From Thermoanaerobaculia bacterium (GTDB taxonomy: Bacteria > Acidobacteriota > Thermoanaerobaculia > Multivoradales > Multivoraceae), in NCBI GenBank assembly GCA_963664405.1, contig OY761158.1, positions 864,001 through 928,000 of the forward strand: 64,000 nucleotides of DNA. The letters run 5' to 3'. The translations under genes and the position numbers were made by a program. This document shows, one piece after another, positions 4,623 through 44,796 of this stretch. Numbering within the stretch: position 1 is the first letter of the stretch; the number at the start of each line of letters is the position of its first letter. The notes beneath the pieces are model-generated. The model was not told the origin of the DNA. It saw nothing but the letters and a program-made list of their open reading frames with translations, and ran no database searches.

Positions 4623-4752
4623 CATCCTACGGAAGTGATCGGTATCACTTCCTTCGGATGCCGAACATGGCGCCGAGGACGGCGCATCCTGCGGAAGTGA
4701 TGAGTATCACTTCCTTCGGATGCGGAATATGGCGCCGAGGACGGCGCATCCT
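4622..4752. repeat. 62-bp palindromic tandem repeat, left part (units start 4622, 4684, 4746; third unit split)
   Basis: Unit GCATCCTGCGGAAGTGATCGGTATCACTTCCTTCGGATGCGGAATATGGCGCCGAGGACGGC; internal hairpin GGAAGTGAT..ATCACTTCC. Confidence 0.9.
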
Positions 4753-5164
4753 GGATCTGCGGGGGCATTTGAACGAAAACTTACGGTTCCGGTCGCTCGG
4801 AGGTAGTGGCCAGTTGGTCGGTCCCAATTGCCCAGCCCTTGGTACGGTTCCGCGTTCTTCGCCTATCGTGTTCGTTATCTTATCTAGCTTCAAGAAGAGC
4901 GTGTTGGGCTAGTGTAGTCCGACCTTGAAACCGCACCCGAGCCCTCTGGCTCCTGAGTATCAGGCGCTACGCGTCCCGGTCACCGCTCTCATGAGGCGCC
5001 ACGAACGAGGACTGCTCTGAACAATCCAGGGGGTGATCGGCATGAGTGAAAACCGTCCTCCTCCGGAACGCTTTCTCTCGGGCCGCCAGCGACGCCACTC
5101 GGTTGCGGGAACGAACTCGAGCGACCGGAACCGTAAGTTTTCGTTCAAATGCCCCCGCTGGTCC
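4753..5164 (+). mobile_element. 412-bp Tn3-derived MITE, copy 1
   Basis: Long terminal inverted repeats; near-identical to 30113-30524; contains tnpA 5' end (MSENRPPPERFLSGRQRRH). Confidence 0.9.
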
Positions 5165-5464
5165 AATACGCACAAATCAATGTATCGCCATGCACCTTCC
5201 ACTAGAAAAGGTGACTGCAGCGAGAGCCCTGGACGACTGCTAGCCTTAGGCCACTGATGGTCAGGCTCGGTTTCGCCCACCCCCCAAACTCTGCATGGCC
5301 CTACTGCTGAGAGCTGTGTGACAGCGAAAGGGTGTTGATTTGAGCGAGCCGACCCCCGTTCCCGTCCAAGAATTCATTGTCACCCATCGGCAAGAGCCGT
5401 CTACAGCTGGCCCACTCGATACCCTTGAGCAGGCAGCGAAGATCTTGTCTCTGCTTGGGGTATC

Positions 5465-5632
5465 AGGCCCGAACGAGCGGGAGTCGGGCTCCTCCAGGCT
5501 GACGTACTGGTGATTCGCGAAGCACGCCTTGACCAGGGTCGTCTTCCCCGATTGACGCGGACCGGTCAAGGTCACTACCGGGTAGTGGCGTGCGCGATCT
5601 CTGAGAACGAGGCTGAGGGCTCTGGGAATCGT
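5465..5632 (-). pseudogene. N-terminal fragment of AAA_14/DUF4143-type ATP-binding protein
   Basis: IPRALSLVL...YPVVTLTGPRQSGKTTL (Walker A)...YVSLEEPD, then homology appears to end. Confidence 0.7.
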
Positions 5633-5733
5633 GGCGCGTCTCCTTGGTAGGGGCTGCCTGGTGTCGACGTGCCGAAGTATCATGTTGATTGAACTTCAAA
5701 AATTCAATTTACAAGATTTGGCCTCCAGACGAG

Positions 5734-5768
5734 AAAAAAACACCGGCGGCCGCCGCCACCGGTGTTTT
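5734..5768 (-). terminator. Rho-independent terminator of the TonB receptor gene
   Basis: Minus strand AAAACACCGG...CCGGTGTTTTTTT hairpin plus T-tract ~35 bp after the stop codon. Confidence 0.75.
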
Positions 5769-5803
5769 GGGATCTCAGCTGAGCCGATCGTGCTTCGACG
5801 TGC

Positions 5804-8494
5804 TCAGAATCGGATACCGAGCTTGAGGCGATACTCCCGCGTGAACTGGAAAGTATCGAGGCCGGTTCGAGGTCGGCCGTTCCTGATGTTGATCCGAATC
5901 AGAACCTGCTCGTTGGTGACGTTGGCAACCTCGCCGCCGATAATGCCTTGCACCCCACCCCTGATCGGGAACTGGTAGGTGGCATTCAAGTTGAGCGCGA
6001 AGTAGTCCTCGAGCTGCTGGGTGCCTCTCTGCTCGCTGAAGGTGCTGGTGTTGATGGTCTGGCCGGACACCGGGTGCGCAACCTGGGTGGAGGGGTGCAA
6101 TGCCCAGGGCTCGCCGGCGGCCGCACGCAGGCTAGCACTGGTCATGACGTCATGCTTGCCGAACGGCCAGCGCTTCATGCCGATGACGTTGACGACGTGG
6201 TCTCGCTGGTAGTCGATGGGTCCGTACCACAAGGGGCCACTGGTGGGATTGACAATCCCTGTTGAAACCTCGACGCCGCCGAAGCCCTCCAAGTGGTTGT
6301 CGTTGTCGTTGCTGGAGATATTGTTGCCTTCGCTCCAGTCCCTCAAGTAGTTCATCTGCAGCGACCAGTTGTCGCGAAACGCACGGTTGACCTGGAGCAC
6401 GATGCCCTCGTAGTCGCGTTGGTTTTGCGGCCAGTTTCTCAGGTCGCGAACGACTGCGCCCTGCTCGTCGTACTGCAGGCTGGCGTGGAACATGTTATCC
6501 ATCTCCCACGTGGTCACGCGCGAGGTGAAGACCCAGTTCCGGGCGAACTGCCAGTCGAAGCCCACCGAGATCTCGTCCTTGTAGAAGGGGTCGACTTGGG
6601 AGTCCAGGGGGTCACGGGCCTCGATGCGGCGCTGAAAGATATCGTAAAGCTCCGTCGCGGGATTGTACCGGAACTGGTCGTATACATTCCTACCATTGGC
6701 GCCCGAGGTGAACTCCGTGAAGACGACACCGAGGCCGATGAAGTCGTAGTAGCGCCCGGCGGATGCCCGCACCAGCATCTTGCCGTCGGCGTTGATGTCG
6801 TAGACCGCCGACAGGCGCGGCACCACCTTGTCGTAGGACATGACCTGCTCGCCGAGATTGTTGTCGATGTCCTGGGTGTCCTGGCGTAGGCCGAGGTGGA
6901 AAGTGAGCTTGTCACCGACCGTGATTCGGTCCTGGACATAGGCGGCCGTCAAAAAAGTATTGTACTCGGTGATGCAAGGGGTTGGGCAGTCGTAGACCCG
7001 TTTGTTGCTCGGGCGCTCGTAGCCACCGGGTAGGCTGCGGCCGTAGCCGCGGCCGCGATACGCGGTTCCGATGCCTACCGACACCCCATAATAGACGTCC
7101 TGGACGTCGAAGCCGCCCTTGAGCTCGTGGTTGCCCTTGAAGTAGGTCACCGAGCCATTCGCCTGATCGCGCGGAAAGTCGTTCCCCCCAGACCCGTTGC
7201 CCCCCCCGGGACCGTTGTAGCTAAAACCGGTCGCGAGATCGCGGTAGTTAAAGTCGTTGCCGTCGGGTGTGTCAGGAGACGCGCCGGGAAGGATCGGGGC
7301 TGGCTCGGCCCCCACCCGCGCCGTGTTGAGGTCGCGTTGGGCGGCCTTGACCTCGAGGAACGCCGAGTTGGTCATGGCGAAGCTCCAGGTCAGGGTCTCG
7401 ACCCTGTTATTCCACTGATTTCCTATGACCGTGTAGATGTCGCCGGCTCCCCCGGGTGGGTTGTTCCGGGCCGACGGGGAGTCGATAAAGGTAAACGTAA
7501 GCTGGTGGCGGCTCGAAGGCTGGGTGTTGAACTTGCCGATCATCGGCCTCATTTCGCGGTTGGTGTTGTACGCCGAGCCGTCCGGCAGCCTGTCGAGATT
7601 GTTGTCATTCATTTCGTTGTAGGAGGCGAAGAACCAGGCCTTGTCGCGCCAGATCGGGCCACCGAGCGAGGTCTCGAAGCTGTTGATTTGGTCGTCCGGG
7701 CGCGGGGTCCCGAGCCAGTTCTCGGCGCGCCATGCCGGGTTCTGGCCGATATAGAGGAAGTCGCCGTGGAAGTTGTTGGTGCCGGTCTTGATCGTCGTGT
7801 TCTGCACCCCGGCGATCCCTCGGCCGTACTCGGCGTCGAAACCGGCGGATTCCATCTTGTTCTCGGCGATCACGGTCGACGGCATATAGAAGCTGATCTC
7901 GCCGCCGCGACGATTGTGGGAGATGTCGACGCCCTCGAGGAAGTTGACGGTCTCTTGGGCGATGCCACCGTTGACCCCGGCTGAATGATCGCGCTCCTGG
8001 CTTAGTGACACCACACCGGCCATCAGCCTCATGTTCGACCTGTAGCCACGCGTGGTTTGGGGGACGTGCTCGAGCGTCTCTGCCCCGAGGGTGGTGGTGG
8101 CGCCGGTGTCGTACTTCGAGATCAGCGCCGCCTCGGAGGTGACGGTGATGGTCTCGGCAGTGGCGGTCCCGAGCGTGAGGTCGACGTCCTGGCGCCGCCC
8201 CGGGTCGAGGACGACTGCGTGCTCGGCTGAGCCCAGGCCCTCGAGGTTGGCGGTGACGTTGTAGGTACCCGCCTGGAGAAGGGCGAAGCGATAGTCGCCG
8301 TCGGCGTTGGTGATCTCGGTCCTCGGGTTCTGAGGGCCGGTAAGAGTCACGGTGACGCCGGGCAGGCCGCCACCCTGGGCGTCGGTTACGGTGCCGTCGA
8401 TGGTCGATGTCTGCGGGCCGTCGGCCAGAAGTGGCAACGCGCAAACGGCGATGGCGATGATCCAAATAGAAGACCTAAGGGCGGTGGCTTTCAC
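5804..8494 (-). CDS. TonB-dependent receptor with N-terminal carboxypeptidase regulatory-like domain
   Basis: Signal peptide, GTVTD...LPGVTVTL, AEYGRG..G....IKTGTNNFHG, C-terminal Phe (LGIRF). Confidence 0.88.
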   Translation of the reverse strand: MKATALRSSIWIIAIAVCALPLLADGPQTSTIDGTVTDAQGGGLPGVTVTLTGPQNPRTEITNADGDYRFALLQAGTYNVTANLEGLGSAEHAVVLDPGRRQDVDLTLGTATAETITVTSEAALISKYDTGATTTLGAETLEHVPQTTRGYRSNMRLMAGVVSLSQERDHSAGVNGGIAQETVNFLEGVDISHNRRGGEISFYMPSTVIAENKMESAGFDAEYGRGIAGVQNTTIKTGTNNFHGDFLYIGQNPAWRAENWLGTPRPDDQINSFETSLGGPIWRDKAWFFASYNEMNDNNLDRLPDGSAYNTNREMRPMIGKFNTQPSSRHQLTFTFIDSPSARNNPPGGAGDIYTVIGNQWNNRVETLTWSFAMTNSAFLEVKAAQRDLNTARVGAEPAPILPGASPDTPDGNDFNYRDLATGFSYNGPGGGNGSGGNDFPRDQANGSVTYFKGNHELKGGFDVQDVYYGVSVGIGTAYRGRGYGRSLPGGYERPSNKRVYDCPTPCITEYNTFLTAAYVQDRITVGDKLTFHLGLRQDTQDIDNNLGEQVMSYDKVVPRLSAVYDINADGKMLVRASAGRYYDFIGLGVVFTEFTSGANGRNVYDQFRYNPATELYDIFQRRIEARDPLDSQVDPFYKDEISVGFDWQFARNWVFTSRVTTWEMDNMFHASLQYDEQGAVVRDLRNWPQNQRDYEGIVLQVNRAFRDNWSLQMNYLRDWSEGNNISSNDNDNHLEGFGGVEVSTGIVNPTSGPLWYGPIDYQRDHVVNVIGMKRWPFGKHDVMTSASLRAAAGEPWALHPSTQVAHPVSGQTINTSTFSEQRGTQQLEDYFALNLNATYQFPIRGGVQGIIGGEVANVTNEQVLIRINIRNGRPRTGLDTFQFTREYRLKLGIRF

Positions 8495-8979
8495 GATTGT
8501 CTCCTCCAGAGTCTTGCGACCCGGTTGAGTCGGGGTCTCTTGAAAGGAGGCCGCCGCCGGGCCGCGCGATGGAAACTACTAACTTGCCTAGAGACTCTCC
8601 CTATCTAAAGACACACTGTGCCTACTTGGCGGTGGTTGACGACGAACAGACATACAGTATACACAGGATACTAACGATCTCTACCCTAGCCTTAGAGCAA
8701 AAATCATACCAACTACATATTGTGTGTAAGAAGGTCGTAGATACTATATATTGTGCTTTGGCCGAACGGCTCTCTATAAAATTGAATCAGCAGTTCAATG
8801 AATTGGATACTATGGCGTTTTGGGTACGGGAGGAGAGGTGAACATCGACTCAGCTGATAACTCAAACCTTGTTGAAACTGACGTCGGCGCCGAGTATATT
8901 TCAGGCAGTCTGTGGGACTGAGGGTCGAACAGCGGTGCGCGAGGTAGGAGCCTGCTTGGCAGGAGAATGGGGGTGAGCA

Positions 8980-9477
8980 GTGGGAGGCCAGAGAGAGTCA
9001 AACCTTCGTGAGCGCAAGCACAGGATCCTCGACGCAGCGGCGAAGCTGATTGCTTCGGAAGGCGCTGAAGCCTGCACCATGCGTAGGCTTGCGCGTGCCG
9101 CGCAGCTCGATGTGGTCACCCTTTACAACCACTATGGATCAAAGGAAGAGATCCTGGAGGCGCTGCGAAGAAGCGGCGCTCGGTCGCTTCATCGACGTTT
9201 CGAGAGGCTGACTGAAACGGAACCGCTCGATCTCATTCGCGCCATCGTCAAAGTGTCGCTTTTGGAGGGGGCAGCACCGATCGATGTGGCGCGACCCAAG
9301 CTCCTGCCCAGTTCTACTTCGCGACGACTGCACGAAGGACCGTTCCTGGCGGCGGTCAAGGAACGGGGGTCGAGGAACAATGGAACGGAAACGCACACTA
9401 AGGGGGCACTCCCCAGGGTTCGATACCGTTGCTGGGTGCCTGTTGACTTCCTCAGTGACGACCAAGCGGCGGCATAG
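8980..9477 (+). pseudogene. TetR-family regulator, truncated at ~9364 by a Tn3-type IR
   Basis: ILDAAAKLIASEG...TMRRLARAAQLDVVTLYNHYGSKEEIL HTH; tail reads through the IR. Confidence 0.75.
9365..9402 (+). repeat. Orphan 38-bp Tn3-family inverted repeat
   Basis: GGGGGTCGAGGAACAATGGAACGGAAACGCACACTAAG, related to the IRs at 27083 and 29681. Confidence 0.8.
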
Positions 9478-9834
9478 GCGACGGCGGAAGCCATGGCTCT
9501 CGATGGCGTCAACCGCGACACGGTGAAGGTCTTCGTCATGGACAAAGAGTTCACGGTCTAGCAAGGCCAAGCACCCGCACAGGCGCTCTAGCACCTATCG
9601 ACGGGTGATGCGCCAACGCTTCTCCGGGTCCTTCTCGATTCGAGACACCGGCTCACTAGCCAGTCGAGCCGTTCAGGTGTCCGTGCGTGCTTGCGCGACG
9701 GCGGCTCGGGATCTGAGGGCTGACTACAGCGGGCTAATCAGAGGCCGATTCACGGTGTCGTGATCCACCGTATAAAGCGACACGCAGGCTCGCAGATCCC
9801 CGTGGATGCTGGATTTCTCGAGCGGCCAAAGGTG

Positions 9835-9861
9835 AAAAGGCGACACCGTGTCGCCTTTTTT
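9835..9861. terminator. Perfect palindrome, possible bidirectional terminator
   Basis: AAAAGGCGACAC-C-GTGTCGCCTTTT(TT). Confidence 0.45.
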
Positions 9862-10084
9862 GTAAAGGTGCGACACCTCCTGCTTCCAAAGGTGGGGTGG
9901 GAGCCTATCGTCGCGGGAGTTGTCGAACGATTGCCTTGATAGCTTCGGCAATCTGTTTCGGTTCCTGGCGGGCGTCGCGCTTCTCGGCTCTTACTCGTTG
10001 TCGATCGAGGTGGGCCTGGAGCTCCTCGAGCTCTGGAGGCCTGTCCTTACTCGGAAGAGGCGACTTCACCACTTCTCCGCAAAC

Positions 10085-10327
10085 TCATCGACGACGTCCT
10101 GGCCAGAGAGATTGAGATAGATCATCGTCGTCTCGATCCGGTCGTGGCCCAAGGCCATCTGTAGAGCTCGAAGGTTGATGCCCTTCTTCAGTGCGGTCAC
10201 GGCGAGCCATCGCGGTCCCACACCACCCTCGATCCATCAACATCAGCTCACGCACTCCATACCAGCAGGGGCACATCATGTTGCAGCTGCAGGTCTCGAT
10301 CATCTGAATCTCGAGCTCCATGGTCAT
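10085..10327 (-). pseudogene. DUF1326-like N-terminal fragment
   Basis: IETCSCNMMCPCW...GWC cysteine motif, then sequence diverges. Confidence 0.6.
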
Positions 10328-10369
10328 GAACGCGGCTCCTCTCTGATTCGAGCAGGATGCTGGGATTTG

Positions 10370-10950
10370 CTAGACCGACTCGGTGACTCCCGGGACCGGG
10401 ATTCGGTAGCGCCCGTTGGCGTCCGGCAGGGATGGTGGATCAGCATCCCAGGCGTACTTCTCCGGAGCGATGCGGATCTCGGACGCCATCGCCTCTTCGA
10501 AGCTGAGACGCTTGCCGGAGTACGTCGCCATCCGGCCGAGAATGGCGGTCATCGTGCTCATCGCGCCATACTCGGTCTCGTTGAAGGGCTCGCCGCGGCG
10601 GATCGCAGCGAAGAGATCGTCGTGCTCCTGCTGGAAGGGGTCGATGTCCCCTTCGCCGTGGCGCCAACCACCTTTCTTGGTCTGCATGGTGCCCTTGGTG
10701 CCGTGGGCGAACTCGGCGACCTGGTTCCAGCAGTTCTTGATGTGGCGGCATTGGCTGAGCATCGTGGTGCCGTCGGCGAAGGTGTACTCGACGGCGTGGT
10801 GGTCGAAGATCTCGCCATGATCCTTCCCGTTGCGCCACTGTCGGCCTCCCTGCCCCTGGGCTGTCACGGGGTAGGCACCCTTGACCCAGTTGCCGACGTC
10901 GAGGTTGTGAATGTGCTGCTCGACGATGTGGTCGCCGCAGAGCCAGTTGA
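10370..10950 (-). pseudogene. C-terminal fragment of Gfo/Idh/MocA oxidoreductase
   Basis: FNWLCGDHIVEQHIHNLDVGNW...GQGGRQ...AILGRMATYSGK; no N-terminal Rossmann motif. Confidence 0.75.
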
Positions 10951-11330
10951 AGCCGCATCCACCGGATGTGGACTCACTGGACTTCTTGAAGACCTCCTGG
11001 AAGATGCTGTAAGGCGTGTCCGCCAGCACCACGATTCCGAAAGCCCCGACCAGAAGGGGCAGGTCAGGCCCACTTCGTTGAGCCAACGTTTCTTTTCGGG
11101 GCTCCAGGTACTCTTGGATTCGCTCCAGGTAGCGATTCCCCAGCGAACTCAGGCGAGAGGCGCCGCCGAGTCCAACCAGGACAACTCCGGCAACACCGAG
11201 CCCCAACCGCGAGCACGCCGCGCTGATCCGGGGCGACTGTCGCAGCCCACCAGCGACAGAGCTACAAAGGCCATGAGGCCCGGCACCGTTGATGCTGCAG
11301 CGCAACATCGAATCATGGCGCCTCGGTCGT

Positions 11331-13085
11331 TTAGTCCCGGTCCGGCAGCGCGAACACGAAGAGGTTGTTGCCCGAGCTCGGGCGAAGCTCGGGCGTGATC
11401 GAAAGGTTGGTCCAAGCCGCCGACCAGGCGCCGGTCGAAGCGACGACATACTGACGTCCGTCGACCGCGTAGCTGATCGGAAAACCGGTGACTGGCGAGC
11501 CGAGATTGACCTCCCACAGAATGGCGCCGGTCTCCTGGTCCAAGGCGCGGAATCGCCCATTCACATCGCCGAAGAAGACGAGCCCACCGCCGGTGGCAAA
11601 GAGCGACATGGTTGCAGCTCGCTGCTCGTAGGTCCAGGTCGTCCTGCCTGTCGCTACAGATACTGCGTACACCGTGCCCGCCTGATCGGTGCCGGGGGCC
11701 ACCTGACTGTTGGCGTCGAGGGCGTAGAGCGGGTTTCCCTCGAAGGTAGAGGTTATGCGTGCGCAGGTGTTGCGGAGCGGGTTGTAGATCATGTGCGTCA
11801 GCGGGCTGTAGGCGCCGGCCTGCCAATTCTTGCCGCCTTTGTGGGTCGGACAGACGAGCATCTCCTGCCCCAGCTCGCTGAAGATCACCTCTGTGTTCTC
11901 GGTCACTTCGCCGGTGGCACCGTCGATATTGCTGATCACGTTTTGTAGCACGGTCGGCGTCGCCCACAGAAACTCCCCGGTCTCGCGGTCGAGGGTGTAG
12001 ACCACACCCGTCTTGCCCGGAATCCCGGTCACCACTTTTCGTACCTCGCCCGCCTGCAGTCGCGGATTGATCCACCGCACTTCGCTCACATCAGGCTCCA
12101 CCACGGTGTCGACCAGGATGCGCTCGAAGGGGTGGTCTAAATCCCAATGGTCGTTGAGATGCTGGTAGTACCAAGCGATCTCCCCGGTGTCTACTTCGAG
12201 CGCGAGCGTCGAGTTGTGGTAGAGGTGCTGGAGGTCTGCGCCACCCAGAAGGAACTTCGGCGCCGGCGAGGTCACCGACGTTCCGATGTAGATGAGCTCC
12301 AGCGTCGGATCGTAGCTCGGCGCCATCCAGGCGCCGACGTGCTTGCGCTCTTCGAAGGGCACATCACCCCAGGTCTCGTCACCCGGCTCACCGGGTGCTG
12401 GAATCGTTCGCCGCCGCCACAGCTCCTTGCCGGTTCTGGCGTCGTGCGCCACAATCACACACGCGTCCGGCCCACCGCGCGGCCGGCAGCTGCGCCCCGA
12501 GATCGCTCTGCCGTCGGCAATGATGGGTCCGGAGCCCTGGATCGCAGGCTGTTTCTTGTAATCGAGGATCTCGGTGTCCCAGACCAGCTCCCCCGAAGTC
12601 GCGTCGAGGGCGAAGATGTGGTCGTCGTAGCTGGTATCGATGATCAGACTGCCATAGATCGCGATATTACGGTTGTTGGCACCCAGGCTGCCGACGTGCT
12701 GCACGACGTCGTCGGGAAGGTCGCGCCGGTACTCCCAGATGAGGTCACCGGTCATCGCGTCGATCGCCTGAATGACATCCTTCGGGTTCGGCATGTACAT
12801 GACACCGTCGTAGACCAGCGGCGTCCCCTGCTGGCGGCCCTCGGTCAGACCTCGAGACCAGACCAGGCGCAGATTGTCCACGTTGTCGCGGGTGATCTCT
12901 TCGAGCGGGCTGTAGGCCCAGCCGTCGAGCGTGCGGCGCCACATCAGCCAGTCGGCGTCGCTGGGGCTCTGGAGCATGGCGTCGGTGACCGGGATGAAGT
13001 CGTTCTCCCTCTGGGCCTGGGTGGCGACCTGTCCGCTGGCCGACAGCATGATCGCAACCGCGATCAACAAGCCGAGATTTGCCAT
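11331..13085 (-). CDS. PQQ-dependent (alcohol-type) dehydrogenase, secreted
   Basis: Start MANLGLL after GGAGGAG; DWLMWRRT..GWAYSPL..IT..NV..L, QGTPLVYDGVMY, WDLD, ISYAVDGRQYV. Confidence 0.88.
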   Translation of the reverse strand: MANLGLLIAVAIMLSASGQVATQAQRENDFIPVTDAMLQSPSDADWLMWRRTLDGWAYSPLEEITRDNVDNLRLVWSRGLTEGRQQGTPLVYDGVMYMPNPKDVIQAIDAMTGDLIWEYRRDLPDDVVQHVGSLGANNRNIAIYGSLIIDTSYDDHIFALDATSGELVWDTEILDYKKQPAIQGSGPIIADGRAISGRSCRPRGGPDACVIVAHDARTGKELWRRRTIPAPGEPGDETWGDVPFEERKHVGAWMAPSYDPTLELIYIGTSVTSPAPKFLLGGADLQHLYHNSTLALEVDTGEIAWYYQHLNDHWDLDHPFERILVDTVVEPDVSEVRWINPRLQAGEVRKVVTGIPGKTGVVYTLDRETGEFLWATPTVLQNVISNIDGATGEVTENTEVIFSELGQEMLVCPTHKGGKNWQAGAYSPLTHMIYNPLRNTCARITSTFEGNPLYALDANSQVAPGTDQAGTVYAVSVATGRTTWTYEQRAATMSLFATGGGLVFFGDVNGRFRALDQETGAILWEVNLGSPVTGFPISYAVDGRQYVVASTGAWSAAWTNLSITPELRPSSGNNLFVFALPDRD

Positions 13086-13302
13086 TTGGCTCTCTCCTCC
13101 AGTTCCAGACCCAGGATTGGAGGGCATGCTACCACACTCCCCGCCGTGTCTTGGACGAGCCCGCCCCCAGCGAGTCTCCCAGAGCGCCTCCAGAGGCGGG
13201 AAAACCGCTGGTCCGACGGTTTGCACGGCTCTTTCGCTGGGACCGAGCGCACCGGTCCGTCTGCTCGCTGAGCGCGCTCCTTGGTACTCGCTGGCGGGTC
13301 CG

Positions 13303-14643
13303 TCATCCCGGCTCCAGCAGAGGCAGCATGAGTCGGGAGATTCTGCGGAGGATGGCCCGGAAGAGGCGCTGGGGCACCGCGACCTCCGCCATCTGGAACG
13401 TGACGTACCTGGCTGAAGACACGACCTTCGCACCGATCTTGATGAGCTTGTCCCGTAGCGTCGTCAGCGACCAGTGGCTGACGCCAGGCGGTAGAGCGAC
13501 ACGGCGGAGGAAGTTCCCCAGGTTGTACGCCAGCGCGAACAGCTGGAGACGGACCTGGTTGTCCACGAAGTCGTGGCAGGACAGCTTCGTCCATTTCAAC
13601 GCGTTCTTTCCTTCCTTGATCCATTGCTCCGCCACACCGCGTCCGTTGTAGAATCTCACCACTCCTGCCGCGTCGCGGCGCAGGTTGGTCACGATGAAGC
13701 CAACGCGGGGAAACAGCTCGCCCCTGTGCCACTCCACCTTTGCCACCACGCGGCGCGCCCTGTCCCAACTTTCCGCACGATACGAGAAACTCTCGTACCA
13801 GATGATCGGCTTCTTCGGCGGACGGCCCACGGGGCGAGTCAGCAGATGCTCGATTTCGCGCTGCAGCACCCTATTGGCCGGAAGGCGGATGGCGTAGAGG
13901 TATCTTTCCTGCTCCAGGAACGTGTAGATGTCTGGGTTGGCGAAGGCGGCGTCTCCTCGGAAAAAGCGTCGAAGCTTCTCGTTACGGTAGCGAGCAACCA
14001 CCGGCTCGAGCACCGAGCGCCAGTCGTCCGCGCTGTGGACGTTCCCCTCGCGCAGTATCGCCCGCTCCAGGTCCCCGAATTGGTTGAAGCAGAACAGTGG
14101 ATGGTAGCAGCTACATCGAAAGTGACCGTTGTATGCAGAGCCCTCCTGACGGCCATACGTCTCGCTCACCGAGCTGTCCATGTCGAGGATGATCTCGCGC
14201 TTTGGTTTCCGCTGCCGCAGCCGGTCGATCCACTTTCCCGAAAGGTCCATCAAGGCTTCCAGATTCTCACGCCGAGTGAGGACCGCCGTCTCGAACCTAC
14301 TCATCTGACTGGTCGATGCGGCGTTGCGCTCCTTCGCCCTGCCGCCTACGACATGGCGCATCGCAGGGTCTACCGACAGCCGCTCCGCATCGTTGGTGTC
14401 TTCGTATCCTGCCAGGCGGCTGAACACCGATTGCCGCAACAGGGCCATCATGCTGTGCTGGGTGTTGCTCCCGGTCCGCCAGTCCGCCAACAAACCGCTC
14501 GCTGTAGTAGTCAGTCGCAGCGCCTCGTCCAGTTCTCGGTAGGCCAGCAGACCCGCATCGCTGGTGACCTTGGAGCCGTGGAACTCCAGCTTCAGGCTGC
14601 GGTCGAAAACGACTCTGAGAGCGCCTTTCCCTCTTTCACCCAT
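13303..14643 (-). mobile_element. IS1380-family transposase (element ~13110-14749)
   Basis: [43 protein letters not shown]; end CCCGGATTTCCCAGATG at 14749. Other end uncertain. Confidence 0.9.
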
Positions 14644-14749
14644 CAGATTCTCCCGATCTGCTCGCGCCGAAAGCGAGGAAAGCCTTTGTTCATGCGGCCG
14701 ATCCAGGGTTCATTATGCCCGATTCAGCCTCCCATCTGGGAAATCCGGG

Positions 14750-14907
14750 ATGAAGTCTTTCCCTGCACCGGCGCTAACAAGTATGGCCTGATCGAAGACA
14801 TCGAGGTCGACGATCGAGGGCTGGTCTACGCGCCCACCGGACCGGGACTCGGCTACGAGATCGATTGGGAGCTGGTGAAACGGGAGCACACAGCCACCGT
14901 CGACTAG
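14750..14907 (+). pseudogene. C-terminal fragment of mandelate racemase/muconate lactonizing enzyme family
   Basis: DDRGLVYAPTGPGLGYEIDWE; begins at the IS1380 end. Confidence 0.65.
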
Positions 14908-14947
14908 CTGGCGACGCGTCAGGCCTGGTTTGTCGCCAGGAAGGTGA

Positions 14948-16036: not shown

Positions 16037-16374
16037 CGAGCCTCCTTTCGTGGCCGCGCCCGTCTTCCGGATGCGGGTACTGTCGCACCGGCGCTGTCTG
16101 TGCCCCTAGGTTACACGACTGCACTCGATGAGCAAGAGAATCTGCATTCAGGAGTCCTCTTCCTGCCCTGTCGCCGACGAGCAGGAGGTCGTCGCGATTC
16201 GGATCAACACTGGTATACCAGCCTCTAAAGTGTTCTCCGCATTTGATTTAATCTCGATCCATGAGTGAAGCTCAGATCCATACTCCGGGCTGGGGTAGGC
16301 GATAGGTAGGATTTGGGCGGTGATTTCGGGCTCAGGGAGTCAGGTGGTCCTGCCGTGTCCATCATCCGTTGGGC

Positions 16375-32838: not shown

Positions 32839-33225
32839 TTGACCAACCCAAAGACCCTGCTCCTCACCATGGCTGCGGCACCGCTGCTCCTCGCAGCGGC
32901 CTCGGCCGCGCAGAGCACCGACTGGCCGAACTTCGGCAACAACCCCAGCAACGCGAAGTACTCGACTCTCGACCAGATCGATGCCCACAACTTCGACCGG
33001 GTAGAGGTGGTCTGGACCTGGGAGTCGGTCGACGGCCAGATTCCGAACCTGCCGGAAGCGATACGCCTGGGGTCGTTCAAGGCGGTTCCCGTGGTGATCG
33101 ACGGGCGCATGTACGTGAGCACGTCCCTCGGTCAGGTGGCGGCGATCGACGCTGTCAGCGGCAAGCCTCTGTGGCACTACGACCCGCAGAGCTGGGAGGC
33201 GGGGCGGCCGGCGAATCCGCGGTAG
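32839..33225 (+). pseudogene. N-terminal fragment of PQQ glucose/quinate-type dehydrogenase
   Basis: Signal peptide, DWPNFG....KYSTLDQI...NF, then premature stop. Confidence 0.75.
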
Positions 33226-33365
33226 TCTCTGTTGGCACGGGACAGTCGCCTCGCTTCGGCCGCTGTACCTATTCCTGGACGGGATCGCCGAGCGGCTGCC
33301 GCCCGGAGCGAAGCGCTGTCTCCCGATCGGCCGCGAAACGGGTCGTCGTCAACAACACGTCAGCG

Positions 33366-34500: not shown

Positions 34501-34701
34501 CGCCGCGCATCAAGCACGCCCAGCGAGGACCGCCAGCCATAGATTGTGTCCACTCTCGCCGCTGGGCCGCGAGGCCGCCAAATGCGCACCTTTCTGAGAC
34601 GCATCCCCATCGCCGCACGCGATCGACGGCAGCCTGCCCGGGGTCTTCGCCTTCTTCGACCGGCACAGGCGAAGGAGCGCCCCGCTATAGTCTCCTCGCC
34701 T

Positions 34702-37392: not shown

Positions 37393-37566
37393 AACCTTCT
37401 CCTGGGTTGGACCACTCGAAGGCAACCAGACTGCCATTCGACCCCTCCTCGAGTGGTCACTTTACGACGCAGGATAGCCTATCAGAGAATCCCGTCTCGT
37501 CTATGACGCCGGTCATAGAAAGGCCGAGGACGGGCCGCTCTTTCCCTACCCTGCTCGCTCGCCTTT

Positions 37567-40147
37567 TTGGGTACCGCGAGTGCGCGGACAGGCCGAAGGC
37601 CAAGGCGGCCATGCGAAGGACACCTAGTGCTCGTCGTTATCAGTCTCTATATCGCCAGCGCGATCTCGCAGTTCCTCGAGTGGTGTGAGAGCCGGAAGCT
37701 CGAGCTCCACACGCTCGAGCCCATCATCATCGCCGCCTACATCGAGGAGCTCGGTCAACGGCGATCGCCGACGACTGTGAAGCAAAACCTCGCAGCCATT
37801 CGGATGCTCATGGACTATCTCGTGGTGGGTCAAGTGCTTCCCTTCAATCCGGCCGCCGCGGTGCGTGGGCCGAAGCACGTCGTCAAGGTCGGCAAGACCC
37901 CCGTTCTCTTCGAGGACGATGCACGGAAGCTCTTCGAAGCAATCGACGCGTCGCACGTTGTTGGTCTGCGCGATCGCGCAATGATCGGCGTGATGATTTA
38001 CTCCTTTGCTCGTGTCGGGGCCGTGGTGGCCATGCGCGTGAAGGACTACTACACCCAAGGACACCGAGCCTGGTTCGTGCTCCACGAAAAAGGTGGCCGC
38101 CATCATCGTGTGCCGGCACACCACAAGGCCGTCGAGTATCTCGATGCCTATGTTGAGGCCGCAGGTATCGCGAAGGAAGGTTCCTCGAAGCTCTTCCGTA
38201 CCGCCCGCGGGAAAACGCGAGAGCTGACCGATCGAGGGATGACCCAAAGCGACGCGCTCCGCATGACGAAGCGTCGGGCCAAGCGGAACCTGTCAAGAAC
38301 TTTGAGACACCTTGAGTCATAAATTAGTGAAGGTCCTCTTCGGTCGAGGCCGGCGGATCCTCAGGCCGGTTGATATAAACGGTTCCAGGTAAAGGCGCGA
38401 CGATGGGTCGCCCTCGGAGGAAGCGTTCTGGGTGAGTTTGGAAGGCGCCATCGAGCGCGACTTGCCGTGCGGCAAGGACCTGCTCCGCTCGACCGTGGTG
38501 GACGCCGTGCGGCGTCAGGTGGGCGATCCCACCGTGGCGGTGCTCGGTGTTGTACCAAGGGAAGAAGGTCCTGCAGAAAGCCTGGGCGGCCTCCTGGCTG
38601 GCGAATCGGGAGGGGAAGCTCGGGTGGTACTTGAGGGTCTTGAACTGGGCCTCGGAAAAGGGGTTGTCGTCACAGACCTGGGGCCGGCTGAGCGACTGAG
38701 TGAGTCCCAGATCGGCGAGCAGCTGAGCCGTGCACTTGGCGGTCATCGGGGAGCCCCGATCGCTGTGCAGGGTGAGCACCTCAGGTTTGACGTCGTGCTT
38801 GCAGCAGGTCTCCTCGATGAGGCGACCGGCGAGATTGGCGTTCTCGCGGGGCGCGAGCATCCAGCCGACGACGTAGCGGCTGAAGATGTCGAGCAGGACG
38901 TAGAGGTAGTAGTAGCTCCACTTCTCAGGACCCCGCAATCGGGTGATATCCCAGGACCAGACTTGGTTGGGGGCGGCCGCCACCAGCTCCGGCTTGGTGT
39001 AGTCGGGGTGGCGAAGCTGGTTACGCCGTTCGCGCACCGGCGCTCGCGCAGCGAGGATGCGGTACATGGTCCTCTCCGAGCAGAGGTAGCGTTGCTCGTC
39101 CAGGAGCGTGGCGACGACCTCGGCGGGGGCACGGTCGACAAAGCGAGGCGAGTCCAGGACGCCCAGGACGGCTTGGCGCTCGTCCTCGCTCAGAGCCCGG
39201 GCAGGTGTTGGCCGGGGCTGCGGCCCGGTAGATGGCTTCCGACGACGGTACAGGGTCGCCCGTGCCACGCCGAGAGCGACACAGGACGGCTTGACGCCGA
39301 CCTGCAGCGCCAATTCGGCTGCGGCCATCAGGAGCTCCTCCCGTCCTCGAGGTTGAAGCCCAGCAGCCCGGCAACTTTTCCCTGCACTTCGAGGATCAGC
39401 TCTGCCTTGCGCAGCGCCTCGCGAGTACGGGATAGCTCCTTTTCCAGTTGCTCGACCTTCTTGGCCAGCGGATTGCCGGACTTCGCCTTGCGCCCTCGCC
39501 TTCGGCCCAGCCTTCGCAGAGCGCCGGTCCTGCGTGCCCTGCGCCAGGCCGTCAGGTGGGAGCTGTACAATCCCTCGCGACGCAGGATCGCGCCGATGTC
39601 GCCAGGCGTGGCCACTTCGACTTCCTCGAGGATTCGCAGCTTGTACTCGGCCGTGAAGGTTCGCCGCGTTGGCTTGGCGACCACCTCAGGATCCAACACA
39701 GGGCTCGGCCGCGCCCAGATGGCGCCCGCTGCTGCGTCTCCGTGCTCGCTACGCTCGCCCGTCGGCGCCTCCGCGGACCCCAGCTGGGCGCACGGGGGAA
39801 GCTGGGAAACCTCCTCCTCGCCCCGGACCGCAATGGACGTGCCTGCTGATCTCATCTCTTGCATCTTCCTCTCTTCAGACATCAGGTTTCACCTCTCCGC
39901 CCTACTCTATTTAAGGGGTGGCGAGATGTCTCAAGCATCTTGGCAGAGAGGGAAGAGCGCAGGCTTGCCAACGTCGATCGGCAACCATACCTTTCGGGCG
40001 ACGGGCATTACTGACTATCTCGCCAACGGCGGGACGTTGGAAACCGCCGCCCAGATCGCTGGCCACGCCTCAACGCGAACGACCCAGCTCTACAACCGCA
40101 ATCCCGAACGCATCTCGCTCGCTGAAATCGAGCGCATCCGGATCTGA
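37567..40147 (+). pseudogene. Tyrosine recombinase interrupted by an IS3-family element
   Basis: GLRDRA..YSFARV, LHEKGG, KRRAK | SAGLPTSIGNHTFRATGIT...GHASTRTTQLY; N-terminus looks eroded. Confidence 0.85.
38284..39952 (-). mobile_element. IS3-family element (orfA 39328-39882, orfB 38324-39328)
   Basis: Imperfect IRs TGTCAAGAACTTTGAGACA / TGTCTCAAGCATCTTGGCA; AAG duplication at 38281 and 39953; WSWDIT, HSDRGS, DNPFSEAQFKTLKY. Confidence 0.9.
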
Positions 40148-40155
40148 GAGGACGT

Positions 40156-41222
40156 GTCAGACTACCTCCAGGCCCGCCAACGAAACCCTACCCTTAGCGG
40201 AACTCTCCCTAGGGATTGCTTGACTCTCCTTATAGGAGGCCGAAGCCGGCACCAATAGAGGTGAGGGCGGGACGCCCCCCAGAGGAGCAGTGAAATCGCA
40301 TGACAGACAATCGGCCCGAACAGAGGGAGGGACGACCCTTTCACCACGGCGAGTCCCTACCCACGCAACTGACGGAAGAGACCCGTCGCGAGTTTTTCTG
40401 GAAGCTCTTTCTCGAGGCCGCTGAGCGATGTGTGCCCAAGTTCTTCGAGACATACACAACGGCAGTGATAGATCGAACGGAACCGCATAAGGCCCCGTTC
40501 GATTTTGAGTTTGCCGGGGCGATGTACATAAAAAGCGAGGGTGCCAACACGATAGTCGACCAGAAGGTGGTCGACGAGTACAAGTCTGCCCGGTCCCTTT
40601 CCGCAGAAGGGCTGATCAAGGGATGGCTCACCGAGTGGCGGATACAGCTCCGCCCCGAAGTGGAGGACGAGGTTCTGTCACTCTTCGTGAACCCTATCGT
40701 TCTCCCACCCCGGGTTCAGACGTGGACCGACGTGACACAGGGGTGGACGAACGGCATCTGCAAGAAATATATTGATGACCAAAACGCCATAGTGGGCCAT
40801 ATGTGGTCGAACGGAGACGTGTGGTGGGCCGAAGACGAGAAGCAAGCACCGTTCCGCCCGTACAATCCCCTCAGAGTTACGCGCGAGGACTGGCTGGATC
40901 ATGCACGAAAGTACTGCGACCTCGTTGAGGCTGCCGCCCGCTGGTGGGGCAGTAGCGATACTTCGATGGGCTCTCGCCGAGAGCGTCATCTTGGTGGCGA
41001 TCGGCTGACAGCCGAGCGGGACACAGCATGGTTGGTGCGACGTCTGCTTCTCGGGGAGTCGCCAGATCGGATCGCCAGGGTCTACGACGACGAGCTTGAG
41101 AAGGCGGGGGTGGATGATGACGTTCAGCCGAAGGGCCGTATGGTGACGAAAGCCCTTCGGCGGACGGCCAAAACAATGGGAGTCAGACTTCCTCCGGGCC
41201 CGCCAACGAAACCCTACCCTTA
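40156..41222. repeat. 41-bp direct repeats at 40156-40196 and 41182-41222
   Basis: GTCAGACT(A/T)CCTCC(A/G)GGCCCGCCAACGAAACCCTACCCTTA, 2 mismatches. Confidence 0.85.
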
Positions 41223-41256
41223 CCACTCCTTAGCCCTCCAAAGAGAAGAGGGGTGA
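40300..41256 (+). CDS. Hypothetical protein (318 aa)
   Basis: Long ORF with ATG start; no family recognised. Confidence 0.6.
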   Translation: MTDNRPEQREGRPFHHGESLPTQLTEETRREFFWKLFLEAAERCVPKFFETYTTAVIDRTEPHKAPFDFEFAGAMYIKSEGANTIVDQKVVDEYKSARSLSAEGLIKGWLTEWRIQLRPEVEDEVLSLFVNPIVLPPRVQTWTDVTQGWTNGICKKYIDDQNAIVGHMWSNGDVWWAEDEKQAPFRPYNPLRVTREDWLDHARKYCDLVEAAARWWGSSDTSMGSRRERHLGGDRLTAERDTAWLVRRLLLGESPDRIARVYDDELEKAGVDDDVQPKGRMVTKALRRTAKTMGVRLPPGPPTKPYPYHSLALQREEG

Positions 41257-41539
41257 CGGCCGATGCTAATTGAGATCCTGGGTCTCGCTATCGCTGCCGT
41301 TGGTGCGGCCGCCGCTGTGTATGCCGCATGGCGTACGCGAGACAAGGTGGAACCCACCGAGCATGATCAGAGTACTCAGTAAACAAGGAAACCCCCCGGC
41401 CTGCCTGTATGGACAGAGGGGCTCTCTCTTTGTATTCGTCCGCGATGCCGCGCCAGGAAAAGCCGAGAGTTCCTCTCTGTGACCCTTGAGCTGCGGTAGC
41501 AAGTGTCTCGTCATTCTGGCCGTCCGCCTATCCCCCCAC

Positions 41540-41577
41540 TTGACGAACTCTCGCGACCCGGTAGTATGGAGTCATAC
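41540..41577 (+). promoter_or_regulatory. Putative sigma70 promoter with palindromic operator for the TA operon
   Basis: TTGACG-16 nt-TAGTAT overlapped by GTATG-GAGT-CATAC. Confidence 0.55.
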
Positions 41578-41597
41578 CAGCTAACACAATAGGTTCT

Positions 41598-41867
41598 ATG
41601 GAAATGGCTCACAAAAAACTCTCCATCTCGCTACCCCCTGATCTCTATGAGCAGGCCGAGGCCGTGCGGAAGGCCGAGCACCGTACACGCTCAGAGCTCG
41701 TCCGAGAAGCGCTGCGCTCCTACATAGAGCGCTCCCGTCGCATTCCCGTGGTCGAACCCACCAGCCAAGAGGCGCGCATGTTCAAGGACGGCTGGAAGGC
41801 TTACAAGGCCAACGAGTACGTGACACTCGAAGAGCTTCACAATGAGATGGCAGGTAGTCACAAATAG
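41598..41867 (+). CDS. Ribbon-helix-helix (CopG-like) antitoxin
   Basis: KLSISLPPDL......K.E.RTRSELVREALRSY. Confidence 0.82.
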   Translation: MEMAHKKLSISLPPDLYEQAEAVRKAEHRTRSELVREALRSYIERSRRIPVVEPTSQEARMFKDGWKAYKANEYVTLEELHNEMAGSHK

Positions 41868-42114
41868 GGCCGCCGTCAGAGACATCCGACGCCTCCCTAC
41901 CCGAGCCCGCACCCGGATTCTTGAGGCCATCTCCGACATGGCCATCGATCCTTTCAGTGGAGACGTCGTTCGACTCAAGGGGCGCTCACCGCGTCTCGAA
42001 TTTCGCCGTCGGGTTGGGTCGTGGCGCATCCTCTTCGGCGTCGACTACGATCAGACGACGGTCGTCGTCTTCAGAGTAGCTCGTCGCACAACACGCACCT
42101 ACAAGAAATCATGA
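41842..42114 (+). CDS. Type II toxin, RelE/ParE family
   Basis: DPFSGDVVRLKG....FRRRVGSWRILF...R....TY. Confidence 0.85.
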   Translation: MRWQVVTNRAAVRDIRRLPTRARTRILEAISDMAIDPFSGDVVRLKGRSPRLEFRRRVGSWRILFGVDYDQTTVVVFRVARRTTRTYKKS

Positions 42115-42518
42115 CCACCACCCTCGCCATCGTGAACCAAAAAGGAGGTGTCGGAAAGACGACGAGTACGATCAACCTCGCCTATGCCCTCGCTCAGCAG
42201 GGCAAGCGCGTTTTGATGGTGGACACTGACCCGCAAGCGAGCCTGACGAAGTACGCAGGCTATGAGCCCGACGAGCTCGAGCTCGCCGGCACGACGCTCT
42301 ATCACGGCCTCACGACGCGGAAGGCGCTACGGAAGCTCATCCTCAAGAACGAGAGCGTGGACCCACATCTTCTGGCTGCAAGCAAGAACCATCACCATGA
42401 CATTGGTGCTGCCGCCAAAAAGCGCGGCAACATCATGCTCCGCGATGCCCTGGCCAAGATCAAAGACGACTACGACTTTGTCCTCATTGACTCACCGCCC
42501 TGGCTCGGTAAGGTAACA
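42111..42518 (+). pseudogene. parA: ParA-family ATPase truncated by the Tn3 element
   Basis: ATGA overlap with toxin stop; [10 protein letters not shown]; ends LIDSPPWLGKVT at the IR (42519). Confidence 0.85.
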
Positions 42519-44673
42519 GGACCAGCGGGGCCATTTGAACGAAAACCTACCGGTTTCGGTGCCGGTCCGACAGTCAGAGCCGTAGGATTCGGTAGGAGAA
42601 TCACCTAATTGTCGCCCTCGATGAAGTACGTGCCGTTGGGCATGACGTGCTTGAACGGTAGCAGCGAGATGTGCGACAGATCCTCGTCGTCGATCGCCTC
42701 GCCCTCGGCTCGAAGCCGGTCGACGATCTCGCCGATCCGGACCGTGTTCCAGTACAGGATCGCGTTTGAGACGAGGCTCAGACAACTCGCCTTGTTCATG
42801 ATCTCGACGTAGTCGCCGGTCGTGAACTCGCCTTGGTCGGCGAAGAAGATCCAGCGCGACAGCTTCTGTCGGTACTCTCCCTTGTTGAGCTGCTTCTGGA
42901 CCGTCCGGCGCAGCTCTCGATCGGTGAAGTATCGAAGGACGTAGTTCGTCTTCACCATGCGGCCGAGGCTGCGGACCGCCTTCGACAACCGATCGTGAGG
43001 AGACCCGCTAGTGAGGCGCTGTACGACCACGTTCGCTGGAGCCGTCCTCAGTTTGAGAGACCACGCGACCCGCATCATTGGATCCCACTGCTCCTCGATC
43101 AAGTCGAGGTCAACCGTCTTCCTCAGTAGAGGAGCGAACGCTCCTTCAGCCGAGGACCTCGATGGTCGATAGAGTTGCTGGCTCTTGAGGTTCTTGATCC
43201 GCGGCATGAAGTAGTACCCAGCAGGTAGCACAGAGCGAAGACGATCTCGGTGTAGCCATCCGTGTCGGTTGTATGTTCTCGGAGCCGGAGAATCGTGTTG
43301 TTATCGAGGAGACCGTCCAGGACGTAGAGCGCCTCCCGAGGACCACACGAGATCGCTCGCGTGCTGAAGACCGCGAACTGGTCGGAAACGTGCGTGTACA
43401 GGCTGATCCCTTTGTCGTAGTACCCGAAGTATCGGGGGTAGTACGACGCGAGGAGGCTGGCCGCACGGATCTTGAACCGCTGACCATCAGATGACGACGT
43501 CTGGCCATCGCCGTGGATGGCGCTCAGCGGTAGAGCGTGGTGAGCGTTGACGATGGCCGCGTTTGCATCATTCAGAGTCTCCTCCCGGATGTAGTAGTGG
43601 AGAACGTAGCGGAGCATGTCCAGAGTGACGCCGGTAACACTCGCGCTCATGGAAACGACGCCGAGGTTCGTTGCCTGGGAGATGATCGCTGCTAGCAGCG
43701 ATTTGTAGAACTCCTCCGGCCTCGAGCGGTGTTGTTGTACCGGCAGGAAGCTCTGAGTAAAGCGGGTCGATCGATCGACATCCATGAGGAGCTGCTCGAC
43801 CCGAACCAGCGGCAAGCTGGCGTTGATCATCTTCTGCAGTCGGCTCTCCGGCGGCTTCTTCTTGTCGTCTCGACGGAGCTTCAGCCTTCCTTGGTCGACC
43901 CGAGCGAATCGGTCCTGGCCATATCGACTGCCGGCTCGCCGGTTCCCGTCCTGAAACTCGTCGACAAGTCTCGGCCGCACCTCGGTAGGTTGGGGCTGCT
44001 CGAGGTCGGCAAATGAATCCGCCTTCGAATCCTCCCACCGATCGTCCGAGAGAAGGAGGTCCCAGAACGCAACGTGCTGTTTGCTCTCGGGGATGAATAG
44101 GTCCCCCGAGCGAAACGCGTCCCGGAGCGCCAGAGCCAGTCCGGTTTCCCAAGCGTTGCGATTGAGTGAGCCCGGCTCTTCTCCGGGAAGCACCGAGCGC
44201 AGGTCGCTCGCGACGAAGCCAGTCGGCGCGTCCGCGGGAAGGCTCTTGAGGGAGTCGCTCGAGTTCGTTCCCGGTCAACGACCAATCTCGGACAAGCTCG
44301 TCATCGGAAAGGCGCTCGGGTAGTGCAACCGCGTGGCGTCGCTGGCGGCCCGAGAGAAAGCGTTCCGGAGGAGGACGGTTTTCACTGATGCCGATCACCC
44401 CCTGGATTGTTCAGAGCAGTCCTCGTTCGTGGCGCCTCATGAGAGCGGTGACCGGGACGCGTAGTGCCTGATACTCAGGAGCCAGAGGGCTCGGGTGCGG
44501 TTTCAAGGTCGGACTACACTAGCCCAACACGCTCTTCGTGAAGCTAGATAACGAACACGATAGGCGAAGAACGCGGAACCGTACCAAGGGCTGGGCAACT
44601 GGGACCGACCAACTGGCCACTACCTCCGAGCGACCGGAACCGTAAGTTTTCGTTCAAATGCCCCCGCAGATCC
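42519..44673 (-). mobile_element. tnpA: Internally deleted Tn3-family transposon; tnpA pseudogene 42605-~44390
   Basis: IRs GGACCAGCGGGGCCATTTGAACGAAAAC / GGATCTGCGGGGGCATTTGAACGAAAAC; SSSDGQRF, YTHVSDQ, HTTDTDGY, QLNKGE, NAILYWNT; frameshift near 43220; N-terminal deletion near 44250. Confidence 0.9.
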
Positions 44674-44796
44674 ATCCTGCGGAAGATCAGTATCACTTCC
44701 TCCGGATGCGGAATATGGCGCCGAGGACGGCGCATCCTGCGGAAGTGATCGGTATCACTTCCTTCGGATGCGGAATATGGCGCCGAGGACGGCGCA
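44674..44796. repeat. 62-bp palindromic tandem repeat, right part
   Basis: Remainder of the split unit plus one full unit at 44732-44793. Confidence 0.9.

Follow-up and report, generated by a model that had tools for sequence, protein, structure and literature searches.

Composite transposons with Tn3-family ends have been described in several bacteria. TnPpa1 of Paracoccus pantotrophus, 44,286 bp long, is reported to have two divergent copies of Tn3434 and 5-bp repeats; its transposition was observed, and it is considered a transposable genomic island (PMC3281130). TIME-COMPs are described as composites bounded by two Tn3-derived MITEs (miniature inverted-repeat transposable elements) (PMC4133298, PMC13367494), and Tn5271-type composites, bounded by the insertion sequence (IS) IS1071, are named in one of these sources (PMC4133298). 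Here, we describe an island of 39,921 bp (positions 4753-44673) in a stretch of 64,000 nucleotides (nt) of a Thermoanaerobaculia genome, hereafter the window (positions 864001-928000 of a single 6.78-Mb contig; 62.6% G+C). The island is most likely a Tn3-family composite with unlike arms, and as such an example of a known but rarely seen way of moving large DNA blocks. We consider it probable that its outermost tips, at 4753 and 44673, were inserted together by one Tn3-type transposition of the composite unit.

Ends, arms and insertion site of the island

The left junction reads ...GGCGC ATCCT / GGATCTGCGGGGGCATTTGAACGAAAAC..., where the slash marks the border and the inverted repeat (IR) tip starts at 4753; the right junction reads ...GTTTTCGTTCAAATGCCCCCGCAGATCC / ATCCT GCGGAAG..., with the IR tip at 44673. 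The outermost tips are inverted, are identical at 50/50 nt and both have the form GGATCTGC, and the left and right arms share 97.2% identity across 354-355 nt. The same tip is found on a second, internal MITE copy (MITE2). When the left-end MITE (MITE1), MITE2 and the right arm are aligned three ways, all agree over 84 nt counted from the tip; beyond this, the right arm departs from the MITEs by one 5-nt indel and four substitutions. IRs of the Tn3 family are approximately 38-50 bp long and have a conserved inner block about 20 nt from the tip, as in Tn3 itself; the corresponding AACGAAAAC block begins at position 20 in both outer IRs. A 5-bp target duplication, also characteristic of the family, is present as ATCCT on both sides.

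Among the MITE copies of this genome and the right arm, only the outermost pair of ends has matching flanks. MITE1 lies between ATCCT and AATAC, MITE2 between AGATA and AGGAA, a third, shorter MITE copy (genome 2761578-2761955) between AAATC and TAATA, and the right arm between TAACA, within a ParA gene, and ATCCT; none has a duplication of its own. With random flanks, a 5-nt match would arise by chance in 1/1024 cases, a figure that overstates the case for the duplication because a second Tn3-type element in the genome abuts the same ATCCT of another repeat unit.

The left arm conforms to the definition of a Tn3-derived inverted-repeat miniature element (TIME): it is small, has Tn3-type IRs at both ends and lacks a transposase gene. 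It retains the region upstream of tnpA and approximately the first 46 codons, and IR positions 7-47 match between its two ends (41/41 nt). The right arm yields two Pfam DDE_Tnp_Tn3 halves in different frames (E-values 6e-67 and 5e-63), which cover positions 2-193 and 192-389 of profile PF01526. Its product aligns to a full-length relative at residues 5-35 and resumes at residue 449, so about 400 tnpA codons were lost internally. The gene is also frameshifted, and its start position reads ATC, versus ATG in MITE1. Its 3' end faces the inner IR at 42519, and its start lies approximately 290 bp from the outer tip. The present-day element is unable to move by itself; the right arm may have been autonomous, with tnpA intact, when the unit moved. 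As expected of a composite, whose outer IRs should lie between repeats of 5-6 bp, there is a Tn3-type element on either side of a core and a 5-bp repeat next to each outermost IR, but the arms are not copies of one element: a 412-bp MITE stands opposite a 2,155-bp tnpA-bearing relic, with 354 nt in common.

The insertion lies within a native array of a 62-nt hairpin repeat, which begins directly after the TAG stop codon of a DUF1501 gene. To the right of the island, ATCCT is followed by 54 nt and then by one full unit. Excision of the segment together with one ATCCT would rebuild a 60-nt unit, a slightly deviant copy, and restore the phase of the repeat. The repeat family is found at 74 loci genome-wide (6.78 Mb). 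One unit folds at -17.6 kcal/mol (z -4.2), a stability reached by 0/200 shuffles, and ATCCT is located on the 5' arm of the hairpin's outer stem. The identity between the left and right units (0.968) is at the within-array median; 71% of pairs within arrays are at least as similar, but so are 8.3% of pairs between arrays, and the value gives only mild support to a single insertion.

The exact 22-nt IR core was detected in 88 stretches of a collection of species-representative genomes, and 80 loci were fetched; their hosts are mostly marine Gammaproteobacteria, with several Acidobacteriota metagenome-assembled genomes (MAGs). There, 72 of the 78 readable ends start GGACCAGC and none starts GGATCTGC. 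Since the latter form occurs at 0/78 ends of other genomes, the outer tips of the island are a private variant, and its two ends are sister ends of one private lineage. Seven pairs of ends share a contig, five of them facing each other over spans of 17.5-45.2 kb, all with perfect 5-bp duplications (5/5); judging from these loci, large elements and such duplications are normal for this transposase family. In the unit transposons of the IR family elsewhere, the 3' end of tnpA adjoins the outer IR. Because it abuts the inner IR here, the island does not have the layout of a unit transposon, but rather that of a core with an element on each side. At none of the 80 fetched loci was there a match to the inner 300 bp of the MITE.

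The first-pass annotation had described matching inverted ends of a single type with a perfect ATCCT duplication, a 412-bp MITE as the left end, a dead Tn3 element as the right end, and no target duplication at either sub-element. All of this was confirmed, by the 84 identical nt, the ATCCT copies at 4748-4752 and 44674-44678, GGATCTGC at 4753 and 44673, the unlike flanks of MITE1 (ATCCT/AATAC) and of the right arm (TAACA/ATCCT), the Pfam halves, and the alignment of MITE copies. One of its statements needed a small correction: excision does rebuild a repeat unit in phase, at a length of 60 nt and not the claimed 62. That the composite was put together from non-autonomous pieces is not established, as the right arm was possibly intact at the time of movement.

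A probable single transposition and the competing explanations

How the ends are built, the ATCCT duplication and the tendency of the family to make duplications of 5 bp are shown; the single event, the source of the transposase and the donor are inferred. The composite would consist of two inverted arms, a 412-bp Tn3-derived MITE and a short IS-like Tn3 element, each of which would first have landed in a donor molecule before the pair moved together. A Tn3-family transposase, encoded either by the right arm's own, then-intact tnpA or by a relative acting in trans, would have bound the two outward-facing GGATCTGC repeats and nicked their 3' ends. These would have been joined to a 5-bp staggered cut at ATCCT, on the outer stem of a hairpin downstream of the DUF1501 gene, and after replication and later recombination a single copy with ATCCT on both sides would have remained. 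The whole history would take three simple insertions. One event using both GGATCTGC tips would explain why there is a duplication, why the phase of the repeat is restored, why both ends have the private tip, and why the inner flanks are foreign (AATAC; TAACA in the ParA gene), the last because the outer copy of each arm's own duplication would have remained behind in the donor molecule.

This donor probably resembled a plasmid, belonged to the same lineage or a sister lineage, and had already picked up chromosomal segments beside MITE ends. A plasmid origin by direct match was rejected: megablast of 5165-30112 and 30525-44673 against 72,556 plasmid records found nothing. A distance of 25.4 kb separates MITE1 and MITE2, which are direct repeats, so that a large part of the interior could be a later arrival: the unit at insertion could have been as small as approximately 14.6 kb if the block between the two came in by recombination between MITE copies. 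At the upper end, it could have had nearly the present 39.9 kb minus two ISs with duplications of their own (3.7 kb).

A number of observations weigh against insertion in a single event. The empty site was not found, the available relatives being too distant: this genome is alone in its genus among the 41 genomes searched, family-level relatives do not keep gene order, and the five loci with homologues of right-flank genes in related genomes have no DUF1501 gene alongside. From metagenome contigs, 80 loci were kept and ten DUF1501 relatives (78-91% amino acid identity) were examined. The nearest of these loci (87-91%) each have different downstream DNA, as do all nine loci whose downstream DNA is readable, and right-flank genes and the 62-nt repeat were found at 0/9 of these. 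One metagenome locus has 54-72% tblastx matches to window positions 56117-58309, probably to paralogues. Both junctions are read from the assembly; six sequencing runs contain 51-61% of the sampled words of 2753-6752, and in four runs compared with 3001-23000 the contigs are fragmentary, none of those listed crosses 4753, and they have no bearing on the junction or on an island-free allele. A complete Tn3 transposase domain, which the first-pass annotation had suggested looking for as an intact tnpA, was not found in the genome; all three PF01526 matches are partial, and no working Tn3 transposase is therefore left. None of the three MITE copies has a 5-bp duplication of its own, the sign of solo mobility in a TIME. 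The interior was rearranged further, as MITE2 lacks a duplication and so do the three ends of a second Tn3-type IR family, one of which cuts a TetR gene while two bound a MITE of approximately 631 bp. The earlier proposal that the 40-kb island moved as one composite Tn3-type unit is partly supported: the matched end pair, the 5-bp duplication and the foreign inner flanks favour it, and the empty site was not found among the relatives searched.

The target site adds to these objections. A second Tn3-type element is joined, at genome 1280268, to the same ATCCT of a different repeat unit; its TnpA is 63% identical over 254 amino acids, and it carries the end of a resolvase-like gene. This element (genome C1:1280205-1283300, outside the window) has the tip GGGTCAGCGGGCAC... 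and a tnpA cut at Pfam profile position 124/389, and it meets its 62-nt unit at the same ATCCT that the right end of the island adjoins; the opposite end of the element was not found. With a genome-wide count of just 23 CATCCT-variant units, coincident Tn3 hits are very unlikely by chance. This suggests a target preference (hot spot) for the ATCCT of the hairpin repeat and weakens the argument from the duplication, since matching ATCCT flanks could come from two separate hits. Such a preference would fit findings reported for Tn4430, whose transposase binds fork-like DNA and whose hot spot is attributed to pseudo-palindromic operator arrays (bioRxiv 10.64898/2026.05.30.728999).

It is possible, if somewhat doubtful, that Tn3-family transposases of this lineage choose the base of a host hairpin resembling a repetitive extragenic palindrome, with the 40-kb composite and the resolvase-bearing Tn3 element both at the same nucleotide. 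Hairpin-repeat context was not seen at ends of this IR family in 15 loci of Acidobacteriota, Chloroflexota-type and other MAGs, so the evidence for a hot spot is limited to two events. If true, the locus would exemplify in nature a targeting directed by DNA structure, an idea recently put forward from Tn4430 studies of forks and pseudo-palindromes, and a MITE paired with an IS-like arm could bring tens of kb of captured host genes to hairpin sites despite Tn3-type target immunity. The common insertion point of the two elements offers a natural example on which the idea of transposases choosing DNA structure over sequence can be tested. Separately, a 7.1-kb segmental duplication (genome C1:1273163-1280265 and 1638000-1645108, 98.5% identical), with a pyrroloquinoline quinone (PQQ) dehydrogenase gene and a sulfatase fragment, ends at hairpin units with compensatory outer-stem differences (GCATCC...GGATGC vs CTAGCC...GGCTAG).

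With such a hot spot, the MITE and the IS-like Tn3 element might each have hit an ATCCT separately, in one array or in two approximately 40 kb apart, the inner flanks being replaced later by Tn3-type adjacent deletions or other rearrangements; the interior would then never have moved as a unit. The distinct Tn3 element at the identical position of another unit is in keeping with this, as are the commonness of repeat arrays (74 loci in 6.78 Mb), the 8.3% of between-array pairs that are as similar as the left and right units, and the signs of rearrangement at every other end in the genome. We nevertheless regard two separate hits as unlikely and rate them below a single event, because they require more events (two insertions and two inner-flank replacements) and a chance pairing, in inverted orientation, of the same private tip facing outward, and because the interior looks imported (it has ParA twice, ParE and AbiEii, and where native genes of the locality might be looked for, there are copies of chromosomal loci far away). 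Nor is there a repeat remnant at either inner flank. That the island is an ordinary long unit transposon of this IR family, now decayed, whose MITE-like left end and inner IRs are secondary, seems very improbable: the family does bound elements of 17.5-45.2 kb with 5-bp duplications elsewhere (5/5 facing pairs), but tnpA ends at the inner IR (42519) here and at the outer IR there, the left end is a complete MITE identical to its second copy at 411/412 nt, and the outer tips are the private variant and not GGACCAGC.

We give hardly any credence to an assembly artefact, in which a false join through the 354-412-bp repeats would have brought DNA with no relation to the flanks between them. The region does contain a repeat of approximately 0.4 kb in three copies, and the short-read contigs are fragmentary, with none of those listed spanning a junction; yet the assembly is a single contig of 6.78 Mb, an exact 5-bp duplication restoring a repeat unit is not what a false join would yield, and contigs free of errors match unique interior parts in four public runs, which come from two studies, one possibly the source sample. 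Further models were rejected. A replicative inversion product would have AGGAT at both inner flanks, where AATAC and TAACA are observed, and a simple cointegrate would have directly repeated arms with unlike outer ends, whereas the arms are inverted and the ends alike. A nested composite of the second IR family (9365 to 29718) has unlike flanks (GGAAC and AACTC). For an integrase-driven island or an integrative and conjugative element, no transfer RNA (tRNA) gene was found in the window, the integrases are internal, one of them is split by an IS3, and the boundary repeat is only 5 bp long.

A mosaic of mobile elements and host gene copies

Searches with Pfam, NCBIfam, Rfam and intragenomic BLAST assigned approximately 13.9 kb (35%) of the island to mobile elements: two MITEs, an IS4-type gene, an IS6 fragment with a group II intron, an integrase-IS91 unit, a second-family MITE with an ISAzo13-like IS, an IS3, and the dead Tn3 element (Table 1). 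Another 11.6 kb or so (29%) duplicates this genome's own loci at 81-99% identity (intragenomic BLAST). Plasmid-type genes are represented by ParA, in two fragments, and by one ParE-like and one AbiEii-like gene. The G+C content of the island is not sharply different from that of its flanks.

Table 1. Coordinates of the island, its host array and its interior features (window positions unless marked as genome).
Feature	Position	Strand	Details
Left part of host array	4623-4752	+	two full 62-nt units (4623-4746) and CATCCT
Left copy of target duplication	4748-4752		ATCCT
MITE1, Tn3-derived MITE (TIME), 412 bp	4753-5164	+	outer tip GGATCTGC at 4753, inner tip GGACCAGC at 5164
TonB-dependent receptor gene 1 segment	5728-8916	-	gene 5804-8494; 91% and 86% identical to genome 5054800-5050218
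TonB receptor 1 homology	5728-8646		vs genome 5054800-5051885, 91%
TetR gene, 5' part	8980-9404	+	cut at 9365 by solo second-family Tn3-type IR GGGGGTCGAGGAACAA...
PQQ-dependent dehydrogenase open reading frame (ORF)	11331-13433	-	11344-13021 81-82% identical to three chromosomal loci
IS4-type transposase gene (DDE_Tnp_1_4)	13303-14643	-	
Sulfatase gene and sulfatase fragment	17808-20177	+	gene 17808-19367, full Pfam domain
IS6-type fragment carrying group II intron	20175-22836	-	IS6-type fragment 20175-20853; intron ~20850-22836; reverse transcriptase gene 21011-22336
Tyrosine integrase and IS91-type transposase unit	23165-25767	+	four other full-length genome copies; adjoins second ParA fragment
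ParA fragment 2 and ParE-like toxin gene	25768-26473	-	86% identical to ParA 1 (ParA fragment)
Second-family Tn3-type MITE	27083-29718		~631 bp without guests; holds ISAzo13-like IS and 226-bp repeat
MITE2	30113-30524	+	same orientation as MITE1, 411/412 nt matching
Copy of chromosomal region 6018495-6006681	30525-38098		identities 97.1%, 99.4%, 92.8%
CBM96/DNRLRE protein gene segment	30525-33216		vs genome 6018495-6015798, 97.1%
TonB receptor gene 2 segment	34702-37850	- (gene)	gene 34702-37437; vs genome 6010367-6007215, 99.4%
Tyrosine integrase gene split by IS3	37567-40147	+	IS3 38284-39952, AAG duplication
ParA gene 1, first 135 codons	42114-42518	+	cut by right arm's inner IR
Right arm, dead IS-like Tn3 relic, 2,155 bp	42519-44673	-	inner tip GGACCAGC at 42519, outer tip GGATCTGC at 44673
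Right copy of target duplication	44674-44678		ATCCT
Right part of host array	44674-44794	+	remainder of split unit and one full unit

The ISAzo13-like IS (27120-29124; 2,005 bp, TAA duplication) has been very active recently, as the genome contains another 26 copies of full length that are 98.9-100% identical; both it and the IS3 have copies at 99.9-100% elsewhere in the genome. The duplications of these two ISs (TAA and AAG) bear out the first-pass suggestion that the interior grew by later nested insertions. All three ends of the second Tn3-type IR family (GGGGGTCGAGGAACAA...) lie in the island (9365-9404, 27083-27122 and 29681-29718), and a transposase matching them was not found in the genome. 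The 226-bp repeat next to the last of them (29454-29679) has approximately 30 genome copies at about 94% identity and probably represents a further family of MITEs. In four public runs, there are contigs in which 20849 is joined to 22837 across the group II intron, which points to intron-free copies of the IS6-type element in the same communities.

The homology to the 6018495 locus starts exactly at the MITE2 tip (30524/30525). Such a start is the mark of a transposase-made joint and suggests that a MITE end captured host DNA. The chromosomal site itself (C1:6018495-6018496) has no MITE. Two ParA paralogues are cut within approximately 5 nt of the same codon (25763-25768 and 42513-42519), the former by the integrase-IS91 unit, the latter by the inner IR of the Tn3 arm, and at genome 2761956 the start of a third ParA adjoins the MITE copy there. 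Direct repeats of 41 nt, 95% identical (40156-40196 and 41182-41222), lie a short way downstream of the split integrase gene and flank a 318-codon ORF of no known family, of which the genome holds no other full-length copy.

A cargo for nutrient acquisition had been proposed, comprising TonB receptors, a sulfatase, a phosphoesterase and a PQQ enzyme. The TonB receptors, the sulfatase and the PQQ ORF are present, but the proposal overstates what is a mosaic, of which 35% is mobile DNA. The full-length sulfatase gene (17808-19367) has no close paralogue, and the sulfatase fragment (19522-20177) is 95.9% identical to two chromosomal loci. At the 5' end of the PQQ gene, homology to the three paralogues is lost at 13002-13021, beside an IS. 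No phosphoesterase family was found among 65 ORFs compared with Pfam and 19 compared with NCBIfam, which gave only weak side matches of the sulfatase superfamily.

Comparison with known Tn3-family elements

The GGACCAGC-tipped unit transposons of marine Gammaproteobacteria and Acidobacteriota MAGs resemble the island in their exact 22-nt IR core, 5-bp duplication and similar sizes. Their TnpA is related (54% identity over 230 amino acids to one member), and that of copies on Alteromonas plasmids is 63.6% identical. Unlike the island, they have GGACCAGC at both tips and a tnpA that adjoins the outer IR. IS1071 is an IS-like member of the Tn3 family without resolvase, and Tn5271-type composites have two full copies of it. 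The bracketing of cargo by IS-like Tn3-family elements without resolvase is common to these composites and the island, which differs in having a single IS-like arm, and a decayed one.

The island extends Tn3-derived MITE composites past the small resistance cassettes of proteobacterial plasmids, to a 40-kb chromosomal block in an environmental bacterium. It also shows how a composite gathers host genes, as the start of one captured segment coincides with a MITE tip and the segment shares 97-99% identity with a distant locus of the same genome. Established principles are left as they are. A published account of a MITE paired with an IS-like Tn3 arm was not found, in a weak search whose retrieval for 'TIME-COMP' was swamped by 'time-compressed' papers.

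TnPpa1, as described, is likewise a Tn3-family composite of approximately 44 kb with divergent arms, chromosomal-type genes in its core and 5-bp direct repeats; its arms are two identical, autonomous Tn3434 copies and it was seen moving, whereas the island pairs a MITE with a dead IS-like arm and we infer its movement (PMC3281130). With TIME-COMPs, the island shares a Tn3-derived MITE as an end, 5-bp repeats at the outermost IRs, a transposase that may act in trans, and a core that can hold plasmid modules (PMC4133298, PMC13367494). The TIME-COMPs listed in these sources measure approximately 1.3-11.4 kb, have the same TIME at both ends and come mostly from proteobacterial plasmids (PMC4133298, PMC13367494); the island, in contrast, is 39.9 kb long, has unlike arms and is chromosomal.

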